A stretch of 64,000 nt of DNA from the NCBI GenBank assembly GCA_037146775.1, contig JBAWWL010000006.1, positions 79,120 through 143,119 of the forward strand, read 5' to 3'. The position numbers and the translations under genes are program-made. Positions 2,319 through 19,101 of the stretch are shown here, one piece after another (positions within the stretch are counted from its first letter, which is position 1; every line of letters starts with the position of its first letter). The notes beneath the pieces were generated by a model that was not told where the DNA came from, did not search any database, and saw only the letters and a program-made list of their open reading frames with translations. The stretch is from Candidatus Omnitrophota bacterium (GTDB lineage: Bacteria; Omnitrophota; Gorgyraeia; Duberdicusellales; 4484-171).

Positions 2319-3662
2319 TCAGCTTACCAACGCCACTACTTTTTCTAACTCCATTCTCCTTGAACCTTTTAAAAAAATCACATCGCCCTTTCTTGCTTTT
2401 TTCTTAATAAAATCAGCTATTGCCTGGTGAGAATCGCAGTGATGCACGCTACCGTGGCCGATTGCCTGCAAGGTATCCTTGACACAAGCCGCATGCATTC
2501 CATAGGTAAGGACATGCTCAAAATTACTCTTCGCAATACTATGTGCCAACCGTGTATGATAATACAGGCTTCTGTCACCTAATTCAAGCATGTCACCTAC
2601 GATAGCAATTTTGCGCGCCGGGTACTTGCGCACAAAATGTAATGCTTCCTGGAACGAATACGGATTAGCGTTGTAGGCATCATTCAGGAAAATTAAACCG
2701 TTTACTTCTTTAGTTTCCATCCGCTGAGAAGGAAAATCACGAAATTCATTCATCATACGCACCAAGTCGTCCAACGCTCTTCCAGAAAGGCTCGCAGCCG
2801 ACAAAGCCGCCAGAGCGTTATAGATAAACCCCTCAAAAGGAGTTGCCAGAGTCAATACGCATCTACCTTGAACAAGAAAAGTTGCCGTACTCAAGTCACT
2901 CTTGAGGCGGTGCGCCCAAAGAACATTATCCTTCTTATGCATGCCGAACCAGTATGCCCTCTTACAAAAATTAATCTTCCGAAGATAAGCATCATCCCTG
3001 TTTAACACCGCGCGTATATTCGGATTTGTTTTCAAAAGTGCGGTTTTTTCTTCAAAAATACCCCGTAAAGTTTTCAGACCTTCCAAATGTACCGGCTTAA
3101 CGAATGTCAGGATACCTATATCCGGCTGAGAGATGTCGGCCAATACGCGTATCTCACCCGCCGCATTAGTGCCCAATTCCAGTATAAGCGCATCCTCGTC
3201 TTTAAGAGAAAAAATTGTTTTACCTACGCCTAAAAGATTGTTTTCGGTTTTATAATTCTTCAGCACTGTGCTGTCGCGGCTCAAAAGAAAACCGAGCATC
3301 TCTTTCGTCGTTGTCTTTCCTACAGAGCCGCTCACTGCATACACCAAAGGATTTTTTTTGAGGCGTACATACCGAGCAATGCGCTTAAACGCCTCGTACG
3401 TATCGTCAACGATAAAAAAAGGAACATGAGCCTTGGTAGGAATAAAACGTTCCGCGATAATTAATGATGCACCGTTTTGCACCGCCTGCTCGATGAACTC
3501 GTGGCCATCTTTGTGCTGACCGCGTAAAGCAATAAAAGCCTGACCTCTTGCGATCGAACGCGAATCGATCGAAAAACCGTCTAACGGCCTAAAAAAATAA
3601 ATATTGTAAATTTTATTCGGTTTAGTCAATCGTTCTAATTGTTTAAAATCATTTATAAGCAC
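2319..3662 (-). CDS. murF: UDP-N-acetylmuramoyl-tripeptide--D-alanyl-D-alanine ligase MurF
   Basis: 447 aa Mur ligase with P-loop GSVGKTTTKEM. It lies between murE and mraY. Confidence 0.9.
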   Translation of the reverse strand: MLINDFKQLERLTKPNKIYNIYFFRPLDGFSIDSRSIARGQAFIALRGQHKDGHEFIEQAVQNGASLIIAERFIPTKAHVPFFIVDDTYEAFKRIARYVRLKKNPLVYAVSGSVGKTTTKEMLGFLLSRDSTVLKNYKTENNLLGVGKTIFSLKDEDALILELGTNAAGEIRVLADISQPDIGILTFVKPVHLEGLKTLRGIFEEKTALLKTNPNIRAVLNRDDAYLRKINFCKRAYWFGMHKKDNVLWAHRLKSDLSTATFLVQGRCVLTLATPFEGFIYNALAALSAASLSGRALDDLVRMMNEFRDFPSQRMETKEVNGLIFLNDAYNANPYSFQEALHFVRKYPARKIAIVGDMLELGDRSLYYHTRLAHSIAKSNFEHVLTYGMHAACVKDTLQAIGHGSVHHCDSHQAIADFIKKKARKGDVIFLKGSRRMELEKVVALVS

Positions 3663-5120: not shown

Positions 5121-6863
5121 TCAGTCTCCGGTATCTACGTCCTCATCGCTGACTGCGCCTACCTGGTCTTTAGACGGGCGCGAAATACTTTCCGTCTGAG
5201 CTTTCCCTCCGCGTAAATATTTTATACTTTGCTCCGCTACCTTTCGAAAAAGTGGCGCAGCCACCACGCCGCCAAAGTGTGATTTCTTTGGCTCAAAAAC
5301 ACTCACACCAATAACTATAGGCGGGTCGAGCTCGCTGACAAAACCGATAAATGATGCGCGATATTGTGTCGACGAATATCTTTTAAGTTCTACGTCGTAT
5401 TTTTGAGCGGTTCCGGTTTTACCACCCACCTTTACCCCCTTAATGGCCGCCAGTTTTCCCGTACCATCCGCTACGACATCTTCCAAAATGGCACGCGCTC
5501 TTTCTGCGGTACTGGGTACAATAATTCTTTTCTTTTCAATCGGCATCTGCCTGTAGGCGTCTTGCGTAGCGATAGCAGCTACAATGTGTGGCTTTACCAG
5601 ATACCCTCCGTTAGCCACAACTGCAAACGCCCTCACCAGTTGCAGGAGGTTCACCCCAACCTCCTGACCGATAGGCATAATATATCCCGAAGTGTTTGAC
5701 CAGGCAAAAAGCGGCTTAACATTACCTCGCACTTCACCAGGCAAATCAACGCCGGTTTTTTCCCCAAACCCAAGCTTCTTCATGTAAAGATGAATCGTTG
5801 GCCGGCCCAAGAAATTAGCGATTTTACCTACGCCGATATTGCTTGATTTCTTAAAAACTTCGCGGAAAGTAAGTATACCATACGGTTTCCAGTCATGCAA
5901 AGTACTGCCCGGGATTTTGAAAGCACCATTCTCGCAAAAAATACGGTCTTGATCGCCAAACTTTTTCTGGTCAATCGCTGCAACCAAAGTAACCATTTTA
6001 AAAACAGAACCCGGCTCAAACATATCGCATACCGCTTTGTTTCGCATCAACTCGGAAGAAACTCCTTCGAGATTGTTGGGATTAAATTGCGGGTAATTAG
6101 CCAAGGCGAGTATTTCGCCGGTATTCGCATTCATCACTACAACGCTGCCTTCTCGAGCTGAAAATTTTTTGATAGTTTCTTCCAAATAATTCTCTGTCCA
6201 ATATTGTATCTGGCTATCAATCGTTAAAATAATATCGCGGCCTTCCTGGGGAGTAATAATGGTAGGAGTAAGAATCACTTCGCGGGAAGCAGAATCCTGC
6301 AATACCCTCACCATACCGTCTTTACCGCGCAAACAATTGTCATAGTACAGTTCTAAACCGTCGAGCCCCCTGTTATCAATATCGGTGATACCTAACACGG
6401 ATGCAGCAAGTTTTTCCTGCGGATAAAATCGTTTATACTCTCTTAAAAAACCCACGCCTTTCAACTTGCGTTTCGCGATCTGTTCCTTCTGCCCCCAGGA
6501 AACCTTGCGCTTTATCCAGACAAATCTCTTTTTTTTGGATAACTTTTCTTTCACCTTTTGCCCCGATAACCCTAGTTGCGAAGAAAGTATCGCCACGGTA
6601 AGGTTAGGCTTGGTAATAAAAAGCGGGTCGGCAAAAACAGAGTGGGTATTTATCTCGGTAGCCAGAAGTCTACCCTTACAGTCAAAAATAGTACCACGTT
6701 TTCCTAGGAGCGGAATAATCCGATAGTATTGGTTTTGAGCCAGATGCTGGAAGAAATCACTGCGGAAAACCTGCAGATATACGATACGCAAAGAAATAGT
6801 GAGGAATAAAACAAGGAAAATTATATATACAGCATGTATGCGTAAAGTATCCCTTGTTTTCAC
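5121..6863 (-). CDS. ftsI: penicillin-binding protein / peptidoglycan D,D-transpeptidase FtsI
   Basis: 580 aa with an N-terminal membrane anchor and transpeptidase motifs SxxK (GSVFK), SSN and KTGT. Confidence 0.9.
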   Translation of the reverse strand: MKTRDTLRIHAVYIIFLVLFLTISLRIVYLQVFRSDFFQHLAQNQYYRIIPLLGKRGTIFDCKGRLLATEINTHSVFADPLFITKPNLTVAILSSQLGLSGQKVKEKLSKKKRFVWIKRKVSWGQKEQIAKRKLKGVGFLREYKRFYPQEKLAASVLGITDIDNRGLDGLELYYDNCLRGKDGMVRVLQDSASREVILTPTIITPQEGRDIILTIDSQIQYWTENYLEETIKKFSAREGSVVVMNANTGEILALANYPQFNPNNLEGVSSELMRNKAVCDMFEPGSVFKMVTLVAAIDQKKFGDQDRIFCENGAFKIPGSTLHDWKPYGILTFREVFKKSSNIGVGKIANFLGRPTIHLYMKKLGFGEKTGVDLPGEVRGNVKPLFAWSNTSGYIMPIGQEVGVNLLQLVRAFAVVANGGYLVKPHIVAAIATQDAYRQMPIEKKRIIVPSTAERARAILEDVVADGTGKLAAIKGVKVGGKTGTAQKYDVELKRYSSTQYRASFIGFVSELDPPIVIGVSVFEPKKSHFGGVVAAPLFRKVAEQSIKYLRGGKAQTESISRPSKDQVGAVSDEDVDTGD

Positions 6864-7319: not shown

Positions 7320-8250
7320 GTAACTTTGCCGAACGAGATGCTGGATTCTGCCCTATCTCCGTTGTGCCGGGAGTGAGCGGTTTTTTTGTAACCAACGTAA
7401 GGATATCTTCCTTGGAATAACGCCGCAGAGTGTGTTTGACTATTCTGTCTTCCAGAGAATGAAAAGAAATCACCGCTATTCTGCCATTTTTTGACAGCAA
7501 TCCGATTGCCTTTTCAATCCCCGCCCCTAACACTTCGAGTTCCCTGTTCACCGCTATACGTAAAGCCTGAAATATCCGCGTTGCCGGATGAATCTTGTAT
7601 TTGAAACTGCTTGCAGGAACCGAATGCACCACAATATCCCGTAATTGCGCCGTAGTAGCAATAGGTTCGCGCTTACGCACTTCGAGCAGGGCACGGGAAA
7701 TTCTCTTGGAGTAACGCTCTTGACCGAATTTGCGAAAAATATTTTCCAGTTCATCCTCGCTCAAATTGTTTACCAGGTCATACGCAGAAACGAACGACCG
7801 TTTATCCATGCGCATATCAAGCGGCCCTTCTTTAAAAAGGCTGAAACCTCTTTCGGCGTCACTAAGTTGATATGTTGAAAGGCCTAAATCAAAGAAAAAA
7901 GCATCAACATGCGCTATCTTTAACTGAGCCAGTATGATATCGAGATTAGCGAAATCACCGCGCACGAGAGTAAATCGGCCTTCAAAATTTTTGAGCCGAT
8001 CTGCCGCAAGCATCAAAGACGCCTCATCCCGATCGATACCGATAAGATGCGCATCGGAAGGCAGCGCGTCAAAAAAATGCAGGGAGTGAGACGCTAATCC
8101 CAGCGTACAGTCAACAATAATCTTTTTGCACGACAGATCCAACAAACGCACTACCTCTTCAGACATAACTGGATAATGGTGCGTTTCGTTCATAACAGGG
8201 TTAATTTGTTTTAACGTATTCATTTTTTCATATTGTACACGAATGTACAA
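7300..8250 (-). CDS. rsmH: 16S rRNA (cytosine1402-N4)-methyltransferase RsmH
   Basis: SAM-binding motifs (VDCTLGLASHS, FFDLGLSTYQL) and its position after mraZ. Confidence 0.9.
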   Translation of the reverse strand: MYIRVQYEKMNTLKQINPVMNETHHYPVMSEEVVRLLDLSCKKIIVDCTLGLASHSLHFFDALPSDAHLIGIDRDEASLMLAADRLKNFEGRFTLVRGDFANLDIILAQLKIAHVDAFFFDLGLSTYQLSDAERGFSLFKEGPLDMRMDKRSFVSAYDLVNNLSEDELENIFRKFGQERYSKRISRALLEVRKREPIATTAQLRDIVVHSVPASSFKYKIHPATRIFQALRIAVNRELEVLGAGIEKAIGLLSKNGRIAVISFHSLEDRIVKHTLRRYSKEDILTLVTKKPLTPGTTEIGQNPASRSAKLRVAEKR

Positions 8251-8291
8251 AAATTACAAATCATTTGATACCAAAATATACGCAAAATTTG

Positions 8292-8726
8292 TTACTCAAA
8301 CAAATTTTCTGCTGTTTCTTCAAAGTGCTTCTTGTTGTTTTCATAGTAATTGTTCCATCGCTGGCTATCCCAAACCTCGATCCGATCCGCCACACCTACG
8401 ATTATGATCTCTCTCTTGATTTGCGCAAATTCCTTAAGGTAACCGGGAATCGTTACGCGGCCCTGCGTATCTATTTCAACTTCTACGGCTCCGCTAAAAT
8501 AAAGACGATTAAAAGACCGACCTTCCTGTTTCGTGAAAGAAACTGCCTTCAACCGCGCTTCGAGAGATTCCCAGACACTTTCCGCGAAGAGGAAAAGACA
8601 GCCCTCGAGGCCACGGGTCATATAAAAATTCTTTTTCTCGAGGGCTTTGATTTTTTCCCGAAATCTTGACGGTAAAATAAATCTATCTTTATTATCTAAT
8701 GTATGTGTATATTCGCCATACCACAT
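8292..8726 (-). CDS. mraZ: transcriptional regulator MraZ
   Basis: 144 aa with two MraZ/SpoVT-AbrB repeats (NKDRFILPSRFRE and DTQGRVTIPGYL). It is the first gene of the dcw cluster. Confidence 0.9.
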   Translation of the reverse strand: MWYGEYTHTLDNKDRFILPSRFREKIKALEKKNFYMTRGLEGCLFLFAESVWESLEARLKAVSFTKQEGRSFNRLYFSGAVEVEIDTQGRVTIPGYLKEFAQIKREIIIVGVADRIEVWDSQRWNNYYENNKKHFEETAENLFE

Positions 8727-8812
8727 TCCACTTCACTCCACTTTATTCCACATCATAACTATATGACTTTTATTGAATTTTGTCAAGCGGTTTCGGGGAA
8801 TAAATCGTTGAA

Positions 8813-8828
8813 CCACAACAAGTTGTGG
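8813..8828. promoter_or_regulatory. perfect inverted repeat CCACAAC-AA-GTTGTGG upstream of mraZ (candidate operator in the dcw promoter region)
   Basis: A 7+2+7 palindrome 85 bp upstream of the mraZ start. Further GTGG/CCAC motifs lie nearby (8823, 8856). Confidence 0.25.
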
Positions 8829-8898
8829 CTAAAATTGGCGGTAATACTATATTTTGTGGTTATCTATGCAGTGTCCAAACGTATTATTATATGCGATA

Positions 8899-9843
8899 TT
8901 ATATGCCAGGGTGGCGGTGATATTTTTCACTGATATAATTGACATCATGGTTGATTGCTTCCTTCAATACGCTTTGCGAAACAAATTTTTTTTCCGCCCT
9001 GATTTTTTCTAAAAAAAATATTTTAATTGTTTTCCCCAAAATGTTTCCAGAAAAATTAATGAGGTGCGCTTCGATAACCTCATCCTCCGTATTGCTTACT
9101 GTGGGGCGTTTCCCGATATTAAGCGCGCACACATACGTACTGTCCTCTATCTTCGCAATAGCGGCATATACTCCGGATGAAGGCACAATATAATCAAACG
9201 GATGGATATTGGCGGTAGGAAATCCGAGCGTCATTCCGTAGCCACTTCCCCGAATAATTTTTCCCTTGAGACAATAATCTCTTCCAAGCATTTCCCTCGC
9301 GCTGCCAAACGCCGCTCTTTTCACGTATTCACGGACAACAGAACTGCTGATGGCAATACCGTTTTTGCGCCGTTTCTCAATAACGGAAACTGCGAATTGA
9401 TAGCGGCCCGCAAGCTGCTGCAAAGTATACCGGCTGCCATGGCCTTGATAACCAAAACGAAAATCTTCCCCCACGATAATCTTCTTAATCAGAAAATACC
9501 GCATAAGATACCGCAAAAACTGTTCGCTTGAAAGCTCAAGCAGTTTGGCGTTAGTTTTAAGCAGCCAAAGACAATCTATTCCGAGCGATTCAAAAATGTT
9601 TTTTTTATCCTCAAGATCAGTGAGTAAACCAAGGGAAATATTCTTGGGGGTAACGCGTATCTTGGCAAGACGTTGCGGTGGCACATCAAAAGTAATCGCC
9701 AATGAAACAAGCTGGCCGCGGAGAGCCTCTTGGCGCACCTTACGTAAAAGAAATTGATGCCCAAGATGAACACCGTCGAACACGCCTATAGTAGCTACAC
9801 ATGCTTTTTTTCTAGAGGGTAATTTTGCGTAAATGACTTTCAT
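8899..9843 (-). CDS. ribF: bifunctional riboflavin kinase / FMN adenylyltransferase RibF
   Basis: N-terminal nucleotidyltransferase motif GVFDGVHLGHQ and a C-terminal riboflavin kinase domain (GFPTANI). It overlaps truB. Confidence 0.9.
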   Translation of the reverse strand: MKVIYAKLPSRKKACVATIGVFDGVHLGHQFLLRKVRQEALRGQLVSLAITFDVPPQRLAKIRVTPKNISLGLLTDLEDKKNIFESLGIDCLWLLKTNAKLLELSSEQFLRYLMRYFLIKKIIVGEDFRFGYQGHGSRYTLQQLAGRYQFAVSVIEKRRKNGIAISSSVVREYVKRAAFGSAREMLGRDYCLKGKIIRGSGYGMTLGFPTANIHPFDYIVPSSGVYAAIAKIEDSTYVCALNIGKRPTVSNTEDEVIEAHLINFSGNILGKTIKIFFLEKIRAEKKFVSQSVLKEAINHDVNYISEKYHRHPGI

Positions 9844-10492
9844 CTATGTCGCCGATTTTTATAGCATCATCTAACTTAAACGGCCCAACGCTCAACCTTT
9901 TTATTTTAATGATGTGAGCTCCGCAGGTAAGATTTTCGCCGATATCCTCGGCAAGTTTGCGTATATAAGTCCCTTTGGAACAGCGGACATAAAACTCAAC
10001 AAAAGGAAGATCAATCCTCAGTATTTTTAAGTTATGTATATGTATCTTACGCGGCTGTCGCTGCACCACAATACCTTTACGCGCAAGACTGTAAAGACGC
10101 TTGCCCCCTACCCGTATCGCGCTGACCATGGGAGGAACTTGTTCGATCTCACCTTCAAAAGATGCAAAAGCCCGGCGGATCATCTCCTCGTTAATTGCCT
10201 GATAATCGTGTTTCTGGGTGACAGTTCCTTGCGAATCACCGGTCGTAGTAATTTCACCTAACTTAAGCTCCCCCAGGTATTCCTTATCGAAACTGACAAA
10301 TTTAGGAAATAATTTTGTGTATCCGCCAACTAAAATAATCAAAAGGCCTTCAGCTAAAGGATCAAGCGTTCCCGCATGCCCAACTTGTCTTATCCCCAGT
10401 TTTCTTCTCACGCAGTCAACAACATCGTGAGAAGTCATATTGCCTTCTTTGTTAACGAGGAGAATGCCTTCGCTTGTGTTTTTCTGTATCAT
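9812..10492 (-). CDS. truB: tRNA pseudouridine(55) synthase TruB
   Basis: Catalytic motif GHAGTLDPLAEGLL. Position between nrnA-like and ribF. Confidence 0.92.
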   Translation of the reverse strand: MIQKNTSEGILLVNKEGNMTSHDVVDCVRRKLGIRQVGHAGTLDPLAEGLLIILVGGYTKLFPKFVSFDKEYLGELKLGEITTTGDSQGTVTQKHDYQAINEEMIRRAFASFEGEIEQVPPMVSAIRVGGKRLYSLARKGIVVQRQPRKIHIHNLKILRIDLPFVEFYVRCSKGTYIRKLAEDIGENLTCGAHIIKIKRLSVGPFKLDDAIKIGDIDESHLRKITL

Positions 10493-13248: not shown

Positions 13249-14136
13249 CTATTTTGCGCGAGGATGAAACTTTCCGTGTATTTCTTTCAGCCGCGACTGG
13301 TTGATGTGGGTATAAATTTGCGTTGTCGTAATACTGGTGTGGCCCAGCATTTCTTGAACGCTGCGTAAATCCGCCCCCCGTTCCAAAAGGTGCGTAGCGA
13401 AAGAGTGGCGAAGCGTATGCGGACTGACTTTCTTCTTTACCCCCGCCTCATGCACCGCCTTTTTAATCATTTTCCAAATACTCTGTCGCGAAAGCCTATG
13501 GCCGCCTTGAGCCAAAAATAAATATATTGCCGCCTTTCTTCCCAACAACTTCCCTCGCGAGGCCTCAAGATATGTGTGCAAAAAACCTTGCGCGATTTTT
13601 CCCAGAGGAACAATCCGTTCCTTAGAACCTTTGCCCTTACATTTGAGAAAACCTAAATCAAGATTTAGGTCGGAAAGCTTAAGAAATGAAGCTTCGGAAA
13701 CACGCAAACCCGTCGCATACATCAATTCCAGTATCGCCCTATCTCGCAACCCCTGGGCATTCCGCTTATTTTTCACCTTTAAAATTCTATTTACTTCTTC
13801 ACAGCTCAAAAAAGAAGGGATCTTTTTCTCTACCTTGAGCGCTTCAAGAAAATCTGCCGGATTTGAGGTGGTAATTTTTTCCCGTACCAAAAAACGGTGA
13901 AAATTCTTAACTGTAGAAAGTATACGTGAAATACTTATTACTGATATTTTATTGCGCAGAAAAAATAAAAAGCCGCCGATATCTTTCGATGTGATTTTGG
14001 CTGGTTCGACAATCCCCTGTTCTCGTAAGTAAGCGGTATATTTCTTTAAATCCTGTTGATAAGAAAGTATTGAATTCTGTGATAGCCCTTTCTCAACTTT
14101 TAGATAATCGTTGAATGCTTCGCAATAAATTTCCAT
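13249..14136 (-). CDS. tyrosine site-specific recombinase XerC/XerD
   Basis: Phage-integrase catalytic box (HTLRHSFATHLL...LGH...IYTH) and an N-terminal SAM-like core-binding domain. Confidence 0.85.
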   Translation of the reverse strand: MEIYCEAFNDYLKVEKGLSQNSILSYQQDLKKYTAYLREQGIVEPAKITSKDIGGFLFFLRNKISVISISRILSTVKNFHRFLVREKITTSNPADFLEALKVEKKIPSFLSCEEVNRILKVKNKRNAQGLRDRAILELMYATGLRVSEASFLKLSDLNLDLGFLKCKGKGSKERIVPLGKIAQGFLHTYLEASRGKLLGRKAAIYLFLAQGGHRLSRQSIWKMIKKAVHEAGVKKKVSPHTLRHSFATHLLERGADLRSVQEMLGHTSITTTQIYTHINQSRLKEIHGKFHPRAK

Positions 14137-14763
14137 TTATACCAAAAACGGATTCGTCTCCTGCTCTTTCTTAACGGTTGTCGCAGGGCCGTGGCCGGGA
14201 TACACAATCGTCGCGGGAGGCAAGGTAAGTATTTTTTCTTTTATGGAGGTAACGAGCGTATCCTGCGAGCCGAGGGGAACGTCGGTTCTGCCTATTGAAT
14301 GAGAAAAAAGCGTATCGCCGCTGAAAACCCACCCCCCCAACAACAAAGAAATAGATCCTGGCGTATGACCGGGCGTGTGCAGCACCGAAATCGTATGAGA
14401 GCCGAAAGATAAAACTCCCCCCTCATCTATCGGCAATGGCTTCTTGCAGACGCTCAATGGCGCAGAAAAATACGAGGAACCATTGAGCCGCATATCTTCC
14501 AAAAAAGGCATATCGGCCGGATGAAGGTAACATTTCTGGGTAAATGCATCAAGCGAGGCAATATGGTCAAAATGACCGTGAGTAATAACGAGGAACAGAA
14601 TATCTAATTGTTCTTTGCGGATAAATTCCTGAACCGGTTCGCTTTCACTGGGAGCATCGACAACAAATCCTTTTTTGCTTTCCTTTTCAAAAATAACATA
14701 ACAGTTATTGTAAAGAGCCCCCAGAACAAATGTTTTTAAGCTTATATCTTGCATGCGCAACAA
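14137..14763 (-). CDS. MBL-fold metallo-hydrolase (glyoxalase II-like)
   Basis: HxHxDH motif (ITHGHFDHI) with downstream His/Asp ligands. The start is probably the internal MQDIS. Confidence 0.8.
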   Translation of the reverse strand: MLRMQDISLKTFVLGALYNNCYVIFEKESKKGFVVDAPSESEPVQEFIRKEQLDILFLVITHGHFDHIASLDAFTQKCYLHPADMPFLEDMRLNGSSYFSAPLSVCKKPLPIDEGGVLSFGSHTISVLHTPGHTPGSISLLLGGWVFSGDTLFSHSIGRTDVPLGSQDTLVTSIKEKILTLPPATIVYPGHGPATTVKKEQETNPFLV

Positions 14764-14921
14764 GTGTTTGATTGTTATGTAAGCCGCTACGATGCGTTGT
14801 GAAGCGTTCCGGTAATAGAAGACCCCATAGGCATACCTTTTTAGCAGTATCTCTGTCTACCGATAGACATGCCTAGACGTGGCCTTTTGCAAAGGCGGAT
14901 AAACGCGAAACTGTACCGCGC

Positions 14922-15416
14922 TTACTCCATCCATTTCTGTGCATCGGTATAATTAAACTCTGCCTCAAACTTTCTCTGAAAATGCTCAATTCTCTGTATA
15001 AGCACGTTACGCTCGACGCTGCTCATGTTTGGATCTCGCGTAATCGCCTCTCTTACCTTGGTTAAATCCTGATAAAGCGGATAGATCTTTTCTTTACCCT
15101 GCTGATTATAAAACATTGTTATTTGTTCCAGGTTCATAACTGCCTCATTAATCGCGCGCTTATCCCGTTTCATGCTGTATCCTTTCTGCAACGATTCGTT
15201 CAACTCTTCAAGCCATCCCCTGACAAAAAGATAATAATCAATATATGCCTCCCGCGATGGCTTATTGGGATAGTTCTTAAAATCAACGTATACTGGCGCT
15301 TTTTCTTCAAACTTTTTCTTGCGTACAAACTTCTTACGCAGAGTATAACAGCCACTGGTCAAAAAAAGCGCCATAATAAGTAACCAGAACACGCCTTTCT
15401 TCATATTTGCAATCAT
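14922..15416 (-). CDS. hypothetical lipoprotein
   Basis: Signal peptide with lipobox (LFLTSGC). The mature part is helical and K/E-rich with no recognisable domain. Confidence 0.5.
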   Translation of the reverse strand: MIANMKKGVFWLLIMALFLTSGCYTLRKKFVRKKKFEEKAPVYVDFKNYPNKPSREAYIDYYLFVRGWLEELNESLQKGYSMKRDKRAINEAVMNLEQITMFYNQQGKEKIYPLYQDLTKVREAITRDPNMSSVERNVLIQRIEHFQRKFEAEFNYTDAQKWME

Positions 15417-15509
15417 TTATCTACCGCCTATACTTCATCCGCATAACCGGGGAAATTGTTTATGTTGATGTAATTATACCACGCAAGCCTAAAAAAGCTA
15501 TATAAACCT

Positions 15510-16256
15510 TCAATATTTTACCTTCATCAGATAGAGCCCGCAGGCCGGAGCAGGTTTATTGTGATAGTGTCTTTTCCTTTCTAAGACACTCAGCGCCTCG
15601 TCGACGGTAATTCTCCCCTCGCCTATGGCTACCAGAAAAGAAACAATATTTCTGGCCATATTCCTTAAAAATCCATTCGCTTCTATATCGACATGAACTA
15701 AACTCCCCTTTTTACGTAAAGTGATAGCCTTGATGCACCGAGTACAATCATTATAACTTCTCTCTTCTTTAGCAAAAAGAGAAAAATCTTTTTTTCCCAT
15801 AAGCTCACGCGCCACTCGACGCATTGCGACCAGATCAAGGACCCGTGGCCTATGCCAGGCAAAATTCTCCCAGAACACACTTGCGTCTTCACGATTCAAG
15901 ATAATATAGCGGTATATTTTTGATTTTGCCCAAAAACGCGCATGAAAATCTGCCGGAACTATTTTTACGCTTTTAACCCTTATATCTTGCGGCAAAAATG
16001 CGTTCAAGCCGCTTTTGATATTTCTTAAAGGGATTTGCGAGTCTATCTTAAAATTTATTGCCTGCCCCCCAGCATGCACCCCCCGATCAGTTCTGGAAGC
16101 GTAAGTAATTCTGATTTTTTTCTTATATAGCTTAAACAGCGCCCCCTCGAGGGCTTCTTGAACACTATTTTCTTTGATATCTTTTTTATTTTGCAGCTGA
16201 AAACCAAAATAATTGGTGCCAAGATATTCGATTTTGAGAAAAATATTTTTTAGCAT
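15510..16256 (-). CDS. truA: tRNA pseudouridine(38-40) synthase TruA
   Basis: Catalytic motif RTDRGVHA. 248 aa. Confidence 0.92.
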   Translation of the reverse strand: MLKNIFLKIEYLGTNYFGFQLQNKKDIKENSVQEALEGALFKLYKKKIRITYASRTDRGVHAGGQAINFKIDSQIPLRNIKSGLNAFLPQDIRVKSVKIVPADFHARFWAKSKIYRYIILNREDASVFWENFAWHRPRVLDLVAMRRVARELMGKKDFSLFAKEERSYNDCTRCIKAITLRKKGSLVHVDIEANGFLRNMARNIVSFLVAIGEGRITVDEALSVLERKRHYHNKPAPACGLYLMKVKY

Positions 16257-16454
16257 ATCGTTTTCTATCTATATCTTTATATTTTCGAAGGCAATCGAAC
16301 GGATTCCGGGTAACACTTATACTCTATAATATCTGCATATTCTTATACAATTCTGTGTTTTTTGATATTATAGATATAATACTGAATACTGCAAGATTTT
16401 TTCTTTACAATGCAATATAACCGTGCTATAAATCGAGAATGGATAATAAACTTA

Positions 16455-16634
16455 CATAAGAACCCAATCCAGTGGACTGTATCCACGGCTTTGGATTGGA
16501 CTCTTTAGGCAGTCGAACCTTCTAAATATCGAGAACAAATTCTACGATTTTTTCCCGAAAAGGTTCGACATAATTCGACTATAGATTTTTTCTTCGAAAA
16601 ATGCAAGTCTCATTAGCTGATTTTTGTGTTAGAT
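16455..16634 (+). repeat. structured ~175 bp repeat, copy 1 (ends TGTGTTAGAT)
   Basis: About 90% identical to copy 2 at 17227..17405. It contains hairpins CCAATCCA(N20)TGGATTGG and GTCGAACC(N40)GGTTCGAC, and ends in GTTAGAT. Confidence 0.85.
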
Positions 16635-16657
16635 TGAAAAAATAAAAGGAAAACCCT

Positions 16658-17218
16658 ATGTTGAAAGCAAAAATAATCTTAGTGTTTACTTTATCGCTGA
16701 TTTTGTTTCCCACATTTACCTGCCATTCTCAAGATGCAGCCGAGTTAACTGATCCTGCTTCGGATGGAATATATAAAATGGGGCCTGCCACAGTTAAATT
16801 TATCCCGCCGCCGGGATGGAAACGTAAGACAAATGCAGATCCAGCAATTGGAATAATTCATCGAGTTGAATTTGCTCATCCCTCCGATGAATTGACAACT
16901 ATTCAAATCGAAATTCAATCGCCAACCCCTTACGCTAACTTCGGTGAGGAAGAAGCCTTAAACCGTTTAATGGAGCAATCTTTGGGAATGTCCCCGCAGA
17001 AAATAACCTTTGCCGGCCAAAAGGCTATATCAAGCGTATCGGAAAGCTTTGGATCCAAGATAAAAATGATTTATTTTGTAAAAGGTAATGCCCTTTTCTA
17101 TATTATAATCACTCCCAGCAAAAATGAAGAATTTGATAAACTATTAGCTGTCGCTGATGAGTGCTTAAAAAGTTTTGAAATAATTTCCATAGAGACATCA
17201 AACAATAACAGCCTTTAA
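16658..17218 (+). CDS. hypothetical secreted protein (cassette-like ORF)
   Basis: 186 aa with an N-terminal signal peptide (ILVFTLSLILFPTFTC), RBS AAAGGA, and no recognisable domain. It is plus-strand, unlike every flanking gene. Confidence 0.55.
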   Translation: MLKAKIILVFTLSLILFPTFTCHSQDAAELTDPASDGIYKMGPATVKFIPPPGWKRKTNADPAIGIIHRVEFAHPSDELTTIQIEIQSPTPYANFGEEEALNRLMEQSLGMSPQKITFAGQKAISSVSESFGSKIKMIYFVKGNALFYIIITPSKNEEFDKLLAVADECLKSFEIISIETSNNNSL

Positions 17219-17226
17219 AATAGACT

Positions 17227-17405
17227 GTCTAACAACCCAATCCAACGGACTGTACTCACGGCTTTGGATTGGACTCTTTAGGCAGTCGAACCTTCTAAAT
17301 ATCGGGAAAAATTCTACGATTTTTTCCCGAAAAGGTTCGACATAATTCGCTATAGATTTTTTCTTCGAAAAAATCTAAGTCTCATTAGCTGATTTTTGTG
17401 TTAGA
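17227..17405 (+). repeat. structured ~175 bp repeat, copy 2 (GTCTAAC...GTTAGAA termini)
   Basis: Full-length copy between the secreted ORF and yefM. It starts GTCTAACAACCCAATCC and ends TTTTTGTGTTAGAA. It has three hairpins: the 8-bp CCAATCCA/TGGATTGG stem, the 8-bp GTCGAACC/GGTTCGAC stem, and AGATTTTTT-CTTCG-AAAAAATCT. Confidence 0.85.
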
Positions 17406-17430
17406 AATAATAAAAAATAAATTAGTACTA

Positions 17431-17460
17431 TTGACAAAACGTACGCAATATGGTACGCTT
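17431..17460 (+). promoter_or_regulatory. yefM-yoeB promoter/operator: TTGACA -35-like hexamer plus two GTAC-core repeats spaced 12 bp centre-to-centre
   Basis: TTGACA at 17431..17436, then CGTACG (17440..17445) and GGTACG (17452..17457). GTAC cores 12 bp apart match the known YefM-YoeB operator architecture. The ATG is at 17479. Confidence 0.5.
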
Positions 17461-17478
17461 TAGTAGAGGTGATCTAAA

Positions 17479-17721
17479 ATGACAACATTAAGCGCTACTC
17501 AAGCAAGGAACCGGCTATATAAATTGTTAGATGCTACCGCTTTATCCCATGAACCTATCCAAATTACCGGCAAACGCCACAATGCTATTTTAATTGCCGA
17601 AGATGATTGGCGTTCAATCAAGGAAACATTATATTTGCTCTCCATTCCGGGAATGAGGAAATCTATCCAAAAAGGATTGAAAACTCCTGTTTCAAAATGC
17701 GCTAAATCTCTTAAATGGTGA
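17479..17721 (+). CDS. yefM: type II antitoxin, Phd/YefM family
   Basis: 80 aa. The N-terminus MTTLSATQARNRLYKLLD...EPIQITGKRHNAILIAEDDWRSIKETLYLLS is typical YefM. It overlaps the toxin gene by 7 nt. Confidence 0.85.
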   Translation: MTTLSATQARNRLYKLLDATALSHEPIQITGKRHNAILIAEDDWRSIKETLYLLSIPGMRKSIQKGLKTPVSKCAKSLKW

Positions 17722-17981
17722 ATTGGCAATTAGTCTACACTAAGCAGGCGCAAAAAGACGCTAAAAAGCTCGCTACCGTTGGTCTGCAGCTAAAAGCACA
17801 GGAACTCCTTTTAATCTTACAAAAAAATCCTTTTCAAACTCCTCCCCCATTTGAAAAATTAGTTGGTGATTTGGCTAGAGCTTACTCACGTAGAATAAAT
17901 ATTCAGCATCGGCTTGTATACCAAGTCATTAAAGAATTACGAACTGTAAAAATCATCCGGATGTGGACGCATTATGAATAA
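17715..17981 (+). CDS. yoeB: type II toxin YoeB/Txe (RelE superfamily mRNA interferase)
   Basis: 88 aa with YoeB hallmarks: W..VYTKQAQKDAKKL, NPF, EKLVGDL, YSRRINIQHRLVYQV, RMWTHYE. Confidence 0.88.
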   Translation: MVNWQLVYTKQAQKDAKKLATVGLQLKAQELLLILQKNPFQTPPPFEKLVGDLARAYSRRINIQHRLVYQVIKELRTVKIIRMWTHYE

Positions 17982-17987
17982 ATTAGT

Positions 17988-18047
17988 TTCTAACAAGTCA
18001 ATCCAGCGGACTGTACTCGCGGCTTTGGGTTGAACTCTTTAGGCAGG
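17988..18047 (+). repeat. structured repeat, copy 3 (5' ~55 bp only), abutting the asd stop
   Basis: TTTCTAACAAGTCAATCCAGCGGACTGTACTCGCGGCTTTGGGTTGAACTCTTTAGGCAG aligns to the first third of copies 1 and 2. Confidence 0.8.
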
Positions 18048-18057
18048 TACAATCCTG

Positions 18058-19101
18058 TTATTTAGTAATGAGGTATTCGGCAATTTGCACTGCATTAGAT
18101 GCGGCGCCTTTTAAAAGGTTGTCGGCGACAACCCATAACCAAAGGCCATTTTTAACGAAAGGGTCTTTGCGGATACGCCCGACAAATACTTCATCTTTAC
18201 CCTCCGCGTCCTTGGGCATTGGATAAAGACTTTTCTTGACATCGTCAACCAAAATAATGCCGGGAGCTTTTGAAAATAAACTCTTTACCTTGTCTGGAGT
18301 GATAGTTTTTGCGGTTTCAATGTATACAGCTTCGGAATGCCCTGTTCTCACCGGCACCCTTACGGTAGTAGCTGAAATTTTAATCTTATTGTCGTGCATT
18401 ATTTTATGTGTTTCCTTGACTAACTTCCATTCTTCACTGGTATAATCAGCGTCCGAGAACCCTCCGATATGCGGAAAAACATTATAGGCGAGCTGCTGCG
18501 GCATTGCTCTTTCAGAGGACAAATTACAGAAAATAGAATTCTGACTTCTGTCTTCTGACTTCTGACTTCTCAAGACTATTTCTTTATTTTCCCTCCAAAG
18601 CTGCTCTACCGCATTCTTGCCTGCCCCGGAAGAAGCCTGCAGAGTGGTAACGATTACTCTTTTGATTCCAACTTTTTTATGAATTGGCCAAAGAGCTACC
18701 ACCATCTGAATTGTTGAACAATTAGGATTAGCAATGATACCTTTATGTTTTTTTATATCTTTGGCGTTTACTTCCGGCACGACCAGAGGAACGTCTTTCT
18801 GCATACGAAAGTCCGCTCCGTTGTCAATCACTACAGCGCCACATTTAACTGCACTCGCCGCATAAGTGGCTGCCGCGCCTTTTTCGCCTTCGGTGCCGGC
18901 AAATAATGCAATATCAATACCCTTAAAAGCATCGTCTGAAATAGCCTCAACATTGTATGATTGCCCGTCAACATCAATAGTACGGCTGGTGCGCGCAAAG
19001 ACTTTCAAGGCAGCAATCGGGAAATTACGCCGCCTTAGGCAGCGTAACATTTCAATGCCGACCACGCCCACGCCTACTACCGCAACATTATATTTCTTCA
19101 T
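18058..19101 (-). CDS. asd: aspartate-semialdehyde dehydrogenase
   Basis: NAD(P) Rossmann N-terminus (VAVVGVGVVG) and active-site Cys in NPNCSTI. It carries an in-frame heptamer-repeat insertion (RSQKSEDRSQNS) at 18538..18572. Confidence 0.92.
   Translation of the reverse strand: MKKYNVAVVGVGVVGIEMLRCLRRRNFPIAALKVFARTSRTIDVDGQSYNVEAISDDAFKGIDIALFAGTEGEKGAAATYAASAVKCGAVVIDNGADFRMQKDVPLVVPEVNAKDIKKHKGIIANPNCSTIQMVVALWPIHKKVGIKRVIVTTLQASSGAGKNAVEQLWRENKEIVLRSQKSEDRSQNSIFCNLSSERAMPQQLAYNVFPHIGGFSDADYTSEEWKLVKETHKIMHDNKIKISATTVRVPVRTGHSEAVYIETAKTITPDKVKSLFSKAPGIILVDDVKKSLYPMPKDAEGKDEVFVGRIRKDPFVKNGLWLWVVADNLLKGAASNAVQIAEYLITK
18538..18572. repeat. heptanucleotide tandem repeat (CTTCTGA-like, 5 units) inside asd
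   Basis: ATTCTGA CTTCTGT CTTCTGA CTTCTGA CTTCTCA. This is the same heptamer as the apbE 5' array. Confidence 0.85.

Follow-up and report, generated by a model that had tools for sequence, protein, structure and literature searches.

What has placed a short block of plus-strand genes between truA and asd, in a stretch of DNA where nearly all long open reading frames (ORFs), and every identified one, lie on the minus strand? The stretch analyzed here, hereafter the window, comprises 64 kb from a metagenome-assembled genome (MAG) of an uncultivated Candidatus Omnitrophota bacterium, and the islet in question carries an orphan ORF (ORF186) and a yefM-yoeB toxin-antitoxin pair, bracketed by three copies of a hairpin-rich repeat. 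The window corresponds to contig CAZTHQ010000006.1 of assembly GCA_964613555.1. A first-pass annotation of the sequence had proposed an integron array without an integrase, that is, a CALIN (cluster of attC sites lacking an integron integrase). It had also recorded the minus-strand placement of the housekeeping genes, the gene content of truA, a secreted-type orphan ORF, yefM-yoeB and asd, and three repeat copies with the third truncated, all of which our analysis bears out. With a probability of about 0.9, we interpret the islet, which has the form of a CALIN, as what is left of a sedentary chromosomal integron that lay between asd and truA and has decayed to two cassettes. Support for this reading comes chiefly from related Omnitrophota, through their arrays, their integron integrases (IntI) and the attC architecture of their sites. 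The repeat copies are as follows.

16454-16634, plus strand, 181 nt: w1, the first copy, an attC-derived site of the long, three-hairpin type.
17227-17406, plus strand, 180 nt: w2, the second copy, an attC-derived site with about 91% identity to w1.
17988-18046, plus strand, 59 nt: w3, the third copy, consisting of an attC left end only.

All three are direct repeats on the same strand, and a 21-nt core of the repeat matches the 64-kb window three times, once in each copy, with no match expected from shuffled sequence. By homology and position we assign w1, w2 and w3 as attC sites, although they are probably inactive. With two full-length sites and one truncated site in 1.6 kb, and no IntI in the window, placement in the CALIN category rests on this homology-based attC assignment.

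The closest TruA homologues (63–68% identity) come from other Omnitrophota, and arrays and intI genes were found at the truA-asd junction of relatives (L132, L133, L134 and L136), where the first-pass annotation had suggested that the insertion might be defined. L134, a metagenome contig of the Joint Genome Institute (JGI), has 17 short ORFs spread over 7.5 kb next to asd, and beyond them truA, an ORF, a gene for a metallo-β-lactamase (MBL)-fold hydrolase and XerD. These small ORFs all lie on the strand opposite to asd and truA and include BrnT/BrnA, HepT/MNT, HicA and NYN. At least nine such short ORFs adjoin truA in L126 (GCA_030692055.1), and in L132 and L133 a 414-aa recombinase is encoded directly upstream of truA, divergent from the small ORFs (intI at 1751-2995 and truA at 3000 in L132). 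The most complete arrangement for comparison is that of L136, which runs fabF-leuC-leuD-DUF6812-leuB-asd, four small ORFs, intI (8001-9236), one ORF, and then truA (at 10390)-ORF-MBL-XerD. Since the flanks of L136 are syntenic with the window on both sides and intI is present there, the window islet and a complete chromosomal integron occupy orthologous positions. In both L134 and L136, asd borders the array. Ahead of their first cassette, L126, L132, L134 and L136 share a conserved attI-like junction (ATATTAATTG|TTAG). The block of XerD, MBL-fold hydrolase, small ORF and truA (window 13249-16256) is itself kept in L130, L132, L134 and L136; L130 has the truA-XerD block and no array.

The recombinase of L132 and L133 is a genuine integron integrase by each comparison made. 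It scores 416 bits against TIGR02249, the integron integrase model, in a single full-length stretch (cutoff 265), and its alignment with the Vibrio cholerae integron integrase VchIntIA (PDB 2A3V, E = 5.6e-77) runs from one end to the other and takes in the IntI-specific segment around KYPNA...WQYVFP...RRHH. Its homologues form a large environmental set of 410–450 aa, in which NCBI or JGI had already given many members the label 'integron integrase', with such IntI annotated in Omnitrophota, Ratteibacteria and Thermodesulfobacteriota MAGs. The 414-aa enzyme falls within this set, no member of which is encoded in the window. Compared with VchIntIA (~320 aa), the relatives' clade (410–450 aa) carries an N-terminal extension of ~90 aa before the VchIntIA-aligned region (L132:1751-2017, L136:8001-8270). 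Because the best 120 IntI homologues cover 97–100% of the query, this extension appears to be conserved and not a mis-called start.

The window extends 16.4 kb beyond the islet on one side and 46 kb on the other, and phmmer and profile searches across it returned a single tyrosine recombinase, XerD, and no IntI, in agreement with the earlier statement that no integrase lies nearby.

13249-14136: XerD, the nearest tyrosine recombinase, identified by profile search.

This protein clears the XerD equivalog cutoff of 329.6 with 361.7 bits and reaches only 148 bits against the integron integrase model (cutoff 265), the latter in two separate stretches, which suggests that the IntI-specific segment is missing. 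On these profile scores it is a housekeeping gene, not an IntI. Its presence nonetheless raises the idea that XerD, acting as on dif modules, or some other recombinase that is not an integron integrase, mobilized the two units: the cassettes have a divergent XerD gene at a distance of 2.3 kb, within the conserved truA-ORF-MBL-XerD block, and Xer recombinases are the other tyrosine recombinases for which action on single-stranded substrates is known (PMC5027507). However, the score above the equivalog cutoff and far below that for integron integrases, the occurrence of the same XerD block in L130 without an array, the presence of a true IntI heading the arrays of L132, L133 and L136, and sites of attC rather than dif architecture all speak against it, and we rejected this extremely improbable explanation.

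The inter-ORF sites of the relatives share the ends of the window repeat, reading (A/T)TCTAACAAnnnAATCCAGCGGAC ... CCGCTGATTTTTGTGTTA on the ORF-sense strand, or TCTAACAAnnnAATCCAGCGGAC ... CTGATTTTTGTGTTA in a shorter form. They range from 57 to 184 nt with conserved ends and variable middles, occur only in arrays and in one orientation relative to the ORFs, and in 21 of 21 cases keep TAAC/GTTA or close variants. An ungapped alignment of both arms of 17 sites revealed a common structure composed of a 7-bp R box, a 5-nt spacer in each arm, a 3-bp stem, a bulged top-strand C16, a 6-bp stem, a bulged A23 and a variable stem. In this structure 82% of cells are paired, versus 33–46% when the 3′ partner is slid; 11 pairs show compensatory changes on both sides, and no shuffle reached the observed covariation score. 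Read on the bottom strand, the two bulged bases become G16 and T23, separated by 6 bp. An attC site folds its bottom strand into an R box, an unpaired central spacer of 5–6 nt on each arm and an L box, and in the architecture published by Nivina et al. in 2016 (PMC5027507) a 6-bp stem separates the extrahelical bottom-strand bases G16 and T23/24. The agreement in bulges, 6-bp stem and 5-nt spacers identifies the family with this architecture. The short sites of the relatives fold canonically, within 0–3.4 kcal/mol of the minimum free energy. The arms of w1 and w2 are nearly identical to those of the relatives' sites, and both copies align over their full length, three-hairpin interior included, to the 184-nt site b0 of the L134 array.

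The cassette boundaries bear a mark of recombination through a circular cassette. In a set of 21 cassettes, the opening bases agree with the reverse complement of the R″ in the cassette's own site over a mean run of 6.9 nt, compared with 4.5 nt for that site's own 3′ R′, an excess that none of 20,000 permutations equalled. A circular intermediate with its crossover at G|TT would leave such a match. Within the window, the reverse complement of the w3 R″ (GTTAGAAAC) matches the first bases of cassette 2 (GTTAGAAAT) in an 8-nt run, which suggests that the yefM-yoeB unit entered as a cassette. Overall, the comparison establishes the homology of the sites, the attC architecture of the family, the cassette-boundary signature, the IntI and attI of the relatives, and synteny.

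The sole window copy with both ends is w2, which reads R″ GTCTAAC, a 5-nt spacer, L″ AATcCAAC, a variable region of three hairpins, L′ GCTGATT, a spacer and R′ GTTAGAA, the seventh base of R′ being A and not the Y of the GTTRRRY consensus. Its bottom strand folds as DNA at −36.4 kcal/mol (z = −7.4) and its top strand as RNA at −61.8 kcal/mol (z = −7.6). The first copy, w1, keeps an intact L′-spacer-R′ end (CTGATTTTTGTGTTAGAT, with R′ GTTAGAT), but its left end reads ACATAAG in place of an R″ of the form RYYYAAC; the AAC core is gone and an R box is unable to form. The attC-like termini claimed in the first-pass annotation therefore hold for both ends of w2 and the right end of w1, in the manner of the aadA1 site, and fail at the left end of w1. 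This copy occupies the position of attI in the relatives, whose attI motif ATATTAATTGTTAG is absent there. The third copy, w3, comprises R″ TTCTAAC, a spacer, L″ AATcCAGCGGAC and the first hairpin, lacks L′ and R′, and ends 11 nt from the asd stop codon. As inverse core sites, then, R″ and R′ boxes are present in w2, R′ only in w1 and R″ only in w3. We judge w3 to be a truncation because the last attC before asd is complete in L136, with a spacer of ~100 nt after it. An alternative parsing of w3 as a complete short attC (R″ TCTAAC, hairpin 1 and a pseudo-R′ TTTAGGC) was discarded: no base is bulged in its hairpin, it has no GTT core, and the corresponding place in L136 is taken by a complete attC.

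The attC of aadA1, found directly after this gene in plasmid R100 (class 1 integron In2), makes a useful reference. It shares with the window family the boxes GTCTAAC...GTTAGAT, an unpaired spacer of 5–6 nt, a 3-bp stem, bulged C16, a 6-bp stem and bulged A23 (top strand); C16 and A23 are present in both w1 and w2. In contrast to its 60 nt and tiny terminal loop, the window sites have a three-hairpin interior of ~120 nt, and about four of the six L-stem positions in w1 and w2 are pairable.

Several results weigh against the integron reading. With 180–181 nt, w1 and w2 exceed the usual attC range of 57–141 nt; variation in length lies mostly in the terminal structure, and long branched sites do occur in chromosomal integrons (PMC5027507). 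The canonical R/L-box fold is disfavored in both copies. When forced with DNA parameters, it lies 9.7 kcal/mol above the minimum free energy in w2 and 15.3 kcal/mol above it in w1, and the L-box pairing probability is ~0 in each because L″ pairs within a local 9-bp hairpin. Folding of the bottom strands, an assay that the first-pass annotation had proposed, thus gave a divided answer: the R box of w2 is predicted to pair (probability 0.65), the L boxes are predicted not to, and w1 can form no R box. The caveats that it had attached to the long unit and the three interior hairpins stand. Finally, the R″/cassette-start comparison for cassette 1 was tied, at 6 nt versus 6 nt (w2).

A covariance model was equally unsupportive in the window. 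The model, R1, was built from 13 short Omnitrophota sites only; it recovers the aadA1 attC of R100 exactly (43.8 bits, E = 2.7e-8) and also sites outside its training set beside another IntI in L135. Applied to window 16200-18200, R1 produced no significant match, the best (11.6 bits, E = 0.12) being w3 with a spurious right half, and the confirmation by attC model that the first-pass annotation had envisaged did not materialize. Since R1 also misses the 145–184-nt sites b0, b2 and b4 within the L134 array, its failure on the window is at least partly a limit of sensitivity. Rfam searches of the whole window at gathering thresholds, and of 16200-18200 at permissive E-values, yielded only noise such as snoZ103.

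Among the matches listed by exact-pattern scans of genomes, metagenomes and viral contigs, the repeat likewise appeared in no other genome, which also counts against the reading proposed here. The pattern GGACTGTAYNCRCGGCTTTGG had four matches among species-representative genomes, none similar past the pattern; for three of the four the flanks were inspected, and these appear to be gene ends reading as an ABC-transporter 'GLYARLW' coding motif. In metagenomes GGRTTGRACTCTTTAGGCAG had 118 matches, of which those inspected were unrelated, nearly all from one human-gut locus, and alike in nothing past the 20-mer. A two-box attC pattern had no match in viral contigs.

These scans bear as well on whether the repeat is instead a miniature inverted-repeat transposable element (MITE) or a dispersed element like repetitive extragenic palindromes (REP-like), inserted by chance three times around two genes. 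Terminal inverted repeats of 7 nt (TCTAACA/TGTTAGA), a hairpin-rich interior and a strong fold z-score would suit such an element. Yet the terminal repeat is only those 7 nt, the scans returned chance matches alone, and the 64 kb of the window contain just three copies, all oriented alike at a single locus, with no visible target-site duplication flanking w2. In the relatives the sites occur in arrays only, in constant orientation relative to the ORFs, with middles that vary from 57 to 184 nt between conserved ends, with R″ matching its own cassette start and with IntI at the same locus. The few copies at one locus, the lack of a target-site duplication, the attC ends and the IntI of the relatives led us to reject this highly improbable reading; the MITE or phage-remnant islet that the first-pass annotation had kept in play finds no support.

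If the repeats are attC sites, might the array be a live CALIN and not a fossil, with an IntI from another part of the genome still shuffling it in trans? The MAG is incomplete and intI could lie elsewhere; w2 still has its two R boxes, with R-box pairing at a probability of 0.65, as well as C16 and A23 at the bulge positions; the related long site b0 sits within the 17-cassette array; and the long site b4 has a 10-nt R″/cassette-start match, an indication that long sites recombined in the past. Against this, w1 is without its AAC core and w3 without R′, which leaves neither cassette between two competent sites, predicted L-box pairing is ~0, and the attI core is missing. In addition, none of the 18 NCBI-sourced IntI homologues checked among the best 120 falls in the accession range of this MAG (MEI83497xx), a weak negative. 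Taken together, a live array is decidedly unlikely.

A further possibility, unlikely in our estimation, is that the three-hairpin sites of 180–184 nt (w1, w2 and L134 b0) represent a distinct composite attC subtype whose interior perhaps has a function of its own, so that it could outlast the integrase; a related variant is that arrays without an integrase are still recombined in trans. The hairpin architecture of w1, w2 and b0 is kept between genomes with TruA only 65% identical, and the long sites hold internal degenerate R″/R′-like motifs (TCTAAA, TCTAAG and TTTAGGC). The interior might, for example, act at the RNA level to insulate cassettes from one another or to terminate transcripts between them, or it might lock the cassettes in place.

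Inspection of the interiors themselves located degenerate box-like motifs in w2 (17276-17406) and the same part of w1, namely TTTAGGC after hairpin 1, TTCTAAA and ATCTAAG. Other long L134 sites (b1, c1 and b2) start with a complete short L-box hairpin that is followed by CTTAGAC. The long sites may have arisen by fusion, either of two attC sites or of a cassette without an ORF.

Returning to the decayed integron, its history could have run as follows. The ancestor would have encoded IntI just upstream of truA, with an array running toward asd. IntI would have recombined folded, single-stranded attC bottom strands with a double-stranded attI (...ATATTAATTG|TTAG...), inserting circular cassettes singly downstream of the cassette promoter Pc, and the ORF186 and yefM-yoeB cassettes would have been acquired in this way. 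Later, intI and the attI core would have been lost from this genome, and the outer sites would have been damaged, w1 losing the AAC of R″ and w3 its L′/R′ half. Both long sites are predicted to fold with L″ locked in an internal hairpin, and the array is now most likely frozen at two cassettes. ORF186 may still be transcribable from a Pc-like promoter, and the toxin-antitoxin pair from its own promoter, in which case the pair would tend to stabilize the locus. The loss events, the inactivity of the sites and the use of the promoters are the steps that we infer. The genes, cassettes and putative control elements to which this scheme refers are listed below.

15510-16256, minus strand: truA, the flank at the array head (TIGR00071, 197.8 bits).
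16362-16402, strand not assigned: conserved regulatory block TTGATATTATAGA...CAAGATTTTTT, from a four-way alignment of the window, L132, L126 and L134.
16404-16433, plus strand: Pc-like promoter directed into the array, with −35 TTTACA, a 17-nt spacer and an extended −10 TGcTATAAAT.
16629-17400, plus strand, 772 nt: cassette 1, ORF186 and its attC w2, from the TT of the w1 R′ to the G of the w2 R′.
16658-17218, plus strand: ORF186, an orphan of 186 aa with a signal-like N-terminal segment and no Pfam or NCBIfam match.
17401-18046, plus strand: cassette 2, yefM and yoeB, ending in the truncated attC w3.
17479-17721, plus strand: yefM (Pfam PhdYeFM_antitox).
17715-17981, plus strand: yoeB (Pfam YoeB_toxin; TIGR02116, 89 bits, in the profile search for the toxin-antitoxin pair).
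18058-19101, minus strand: asd, the distal flank of the array (NF011456, 411 bits).

The boundaries of cassette 1 follow from the G|TT crossover rule, and the repeat spacing is 772–773 nt. The single homologue recovered with ORF186 as query is distant, and its surroundings are unrelated and do not form a cassette. The first-pass annotation had described this ORF as promoterless, a view that we revise: a sigma-70-like promoter, the Pc-like element listed above, stands at 16404-16433 upstream of w1, in the same arrangement as in L126 and a similar one in L132, L134 and L136, and it is predicted to be able to express ORF186. Cassette 2 has its own −35 TTGACA at 17432-17437, read from the sequence along with operator-like GTACGC repeats. 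A simple consensus promoter scan listed neither the Pc-like promoter, whose −10 hexamer ends in A, nor that of cassette 2. The regulatory block lies directly upstream of truA in the window. In the relatives it has attI on one side and the integrase gene (or truA) on the other, preceding intI in L132 and L136; it is a candidate divergent promoter region.

The category into which the islet falls, the CALIN, is reportedly described in the 2016 IntegronFinder paper of Cury et al. Sedentary chromosomal integrons are exemplified by the Vibrio cholerae superintegron with its Vibrio cholerae repeat (VCR) attC sites, and toxin-antitoxin cassettes are known to stabilize chromosomal integron arrays. The window islet resembles both kinds of array in its short, mostly promoterless ORFs of one orientation with an attC after each, in attC sites that are highly similar within the array, a toxin-antitoxin cassette with its own promoter, and a fixed chromosomal location inherited over related genomes. 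Long branched variable regions are another trait shared with chromosomal integrons (PMC5027507), and the absence of an integrase from the window is shared with CALINs. Unlike sedentary chromosomal integrons, the window has only two cassettes, sites of 180 nt damage to both outer sites and a disfavored canonical fold, and its host is an uncultivated Omnitrophota.

The orientation of the array relative to replication may also be out of the ordinary. Over window 1-64000 the plus strand has a negative GC skew throughout (−0.10 to −0.19), and from this skew and gene orientation, the only indicators of replication direction used here, the attC bottom strands are presumed to lie on the lagging-strand template. 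That is a minority orientation, reported for 5 of 30 chromosomal integrons and linked to small arrays (PMC5371416).

As to significance, the element belongs to a known kind, a CALIN or decayed sedentary chromosomal integron, and calls for no new mechanism. What is unusual is the combination of 180-nt three-hairpin sites, a fixed asd-truA location in divergent relatives and a visible series of decay. Literature searches on integrons in Omnitrophota (Omnitrophica) returned nothing that appeared to concern the asd-truA locus. By our comparison, several lineages of the uncultivated phylum Candidatus Omnitrophota carry a sedentary integron whose housekeeping location is fixed (asd, array, intI-truA), and its stages stand side by side: the complete integron (L132 and L136), long arrays that keep attI without intI (L126 and L134), and the two-cassette fossil of the window. 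This is a natural series in which to follow the decay of an integron and the survival of toxin-antitoxin cassettes and long attC sites after loss of the integrase. There is also a practical consequence: sites with branched interiors of ~120 nt escape a covariance model that readily finds the short ones, and cassette arrays in such genomes may therefore be under-called.

Several smaller features of the relatives' arrays were seen during this work. In the middle of the L126 array (2960-3080) lies a piece of ~110 nt from the 3′ end of asd, close to window 18058-18170, with a degenerate R″-L″ remnant before it on the array-head side and more cassettes after it, which suggests that this array was rearranged or extended over the old asd boundary. 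Very short 'cassettes' without an ORF occur at L136:7790-7830 and L132:930-975, in which R′ and a complementary R″ are only ~13 nt apart; one example, GTTAGCGCCAATAATAATTGGCGCTAAC, directly follows attI in L136. A small GC-rich palindrome (CTGCCTGCCGGCAGGCAGG and variants) is inserted in the L″ region of an attC of L134 (6350-6375, site b2), and palindromes of the CTGCCTGCCGGCAGGCAGG type recur in the L126 intergenic regions 2790-3275 and 5758-6000 in the manner of a miniature hairpin repeat. In the window itself, the asd coding region contains a tandem 14-nt duplication at 18539-18566 (TTCTGACTTCTGTC / TTCTGACTTCTGAC), which encodes a low-complexity Asd peptide, ...RSQKSEDRSQNS....

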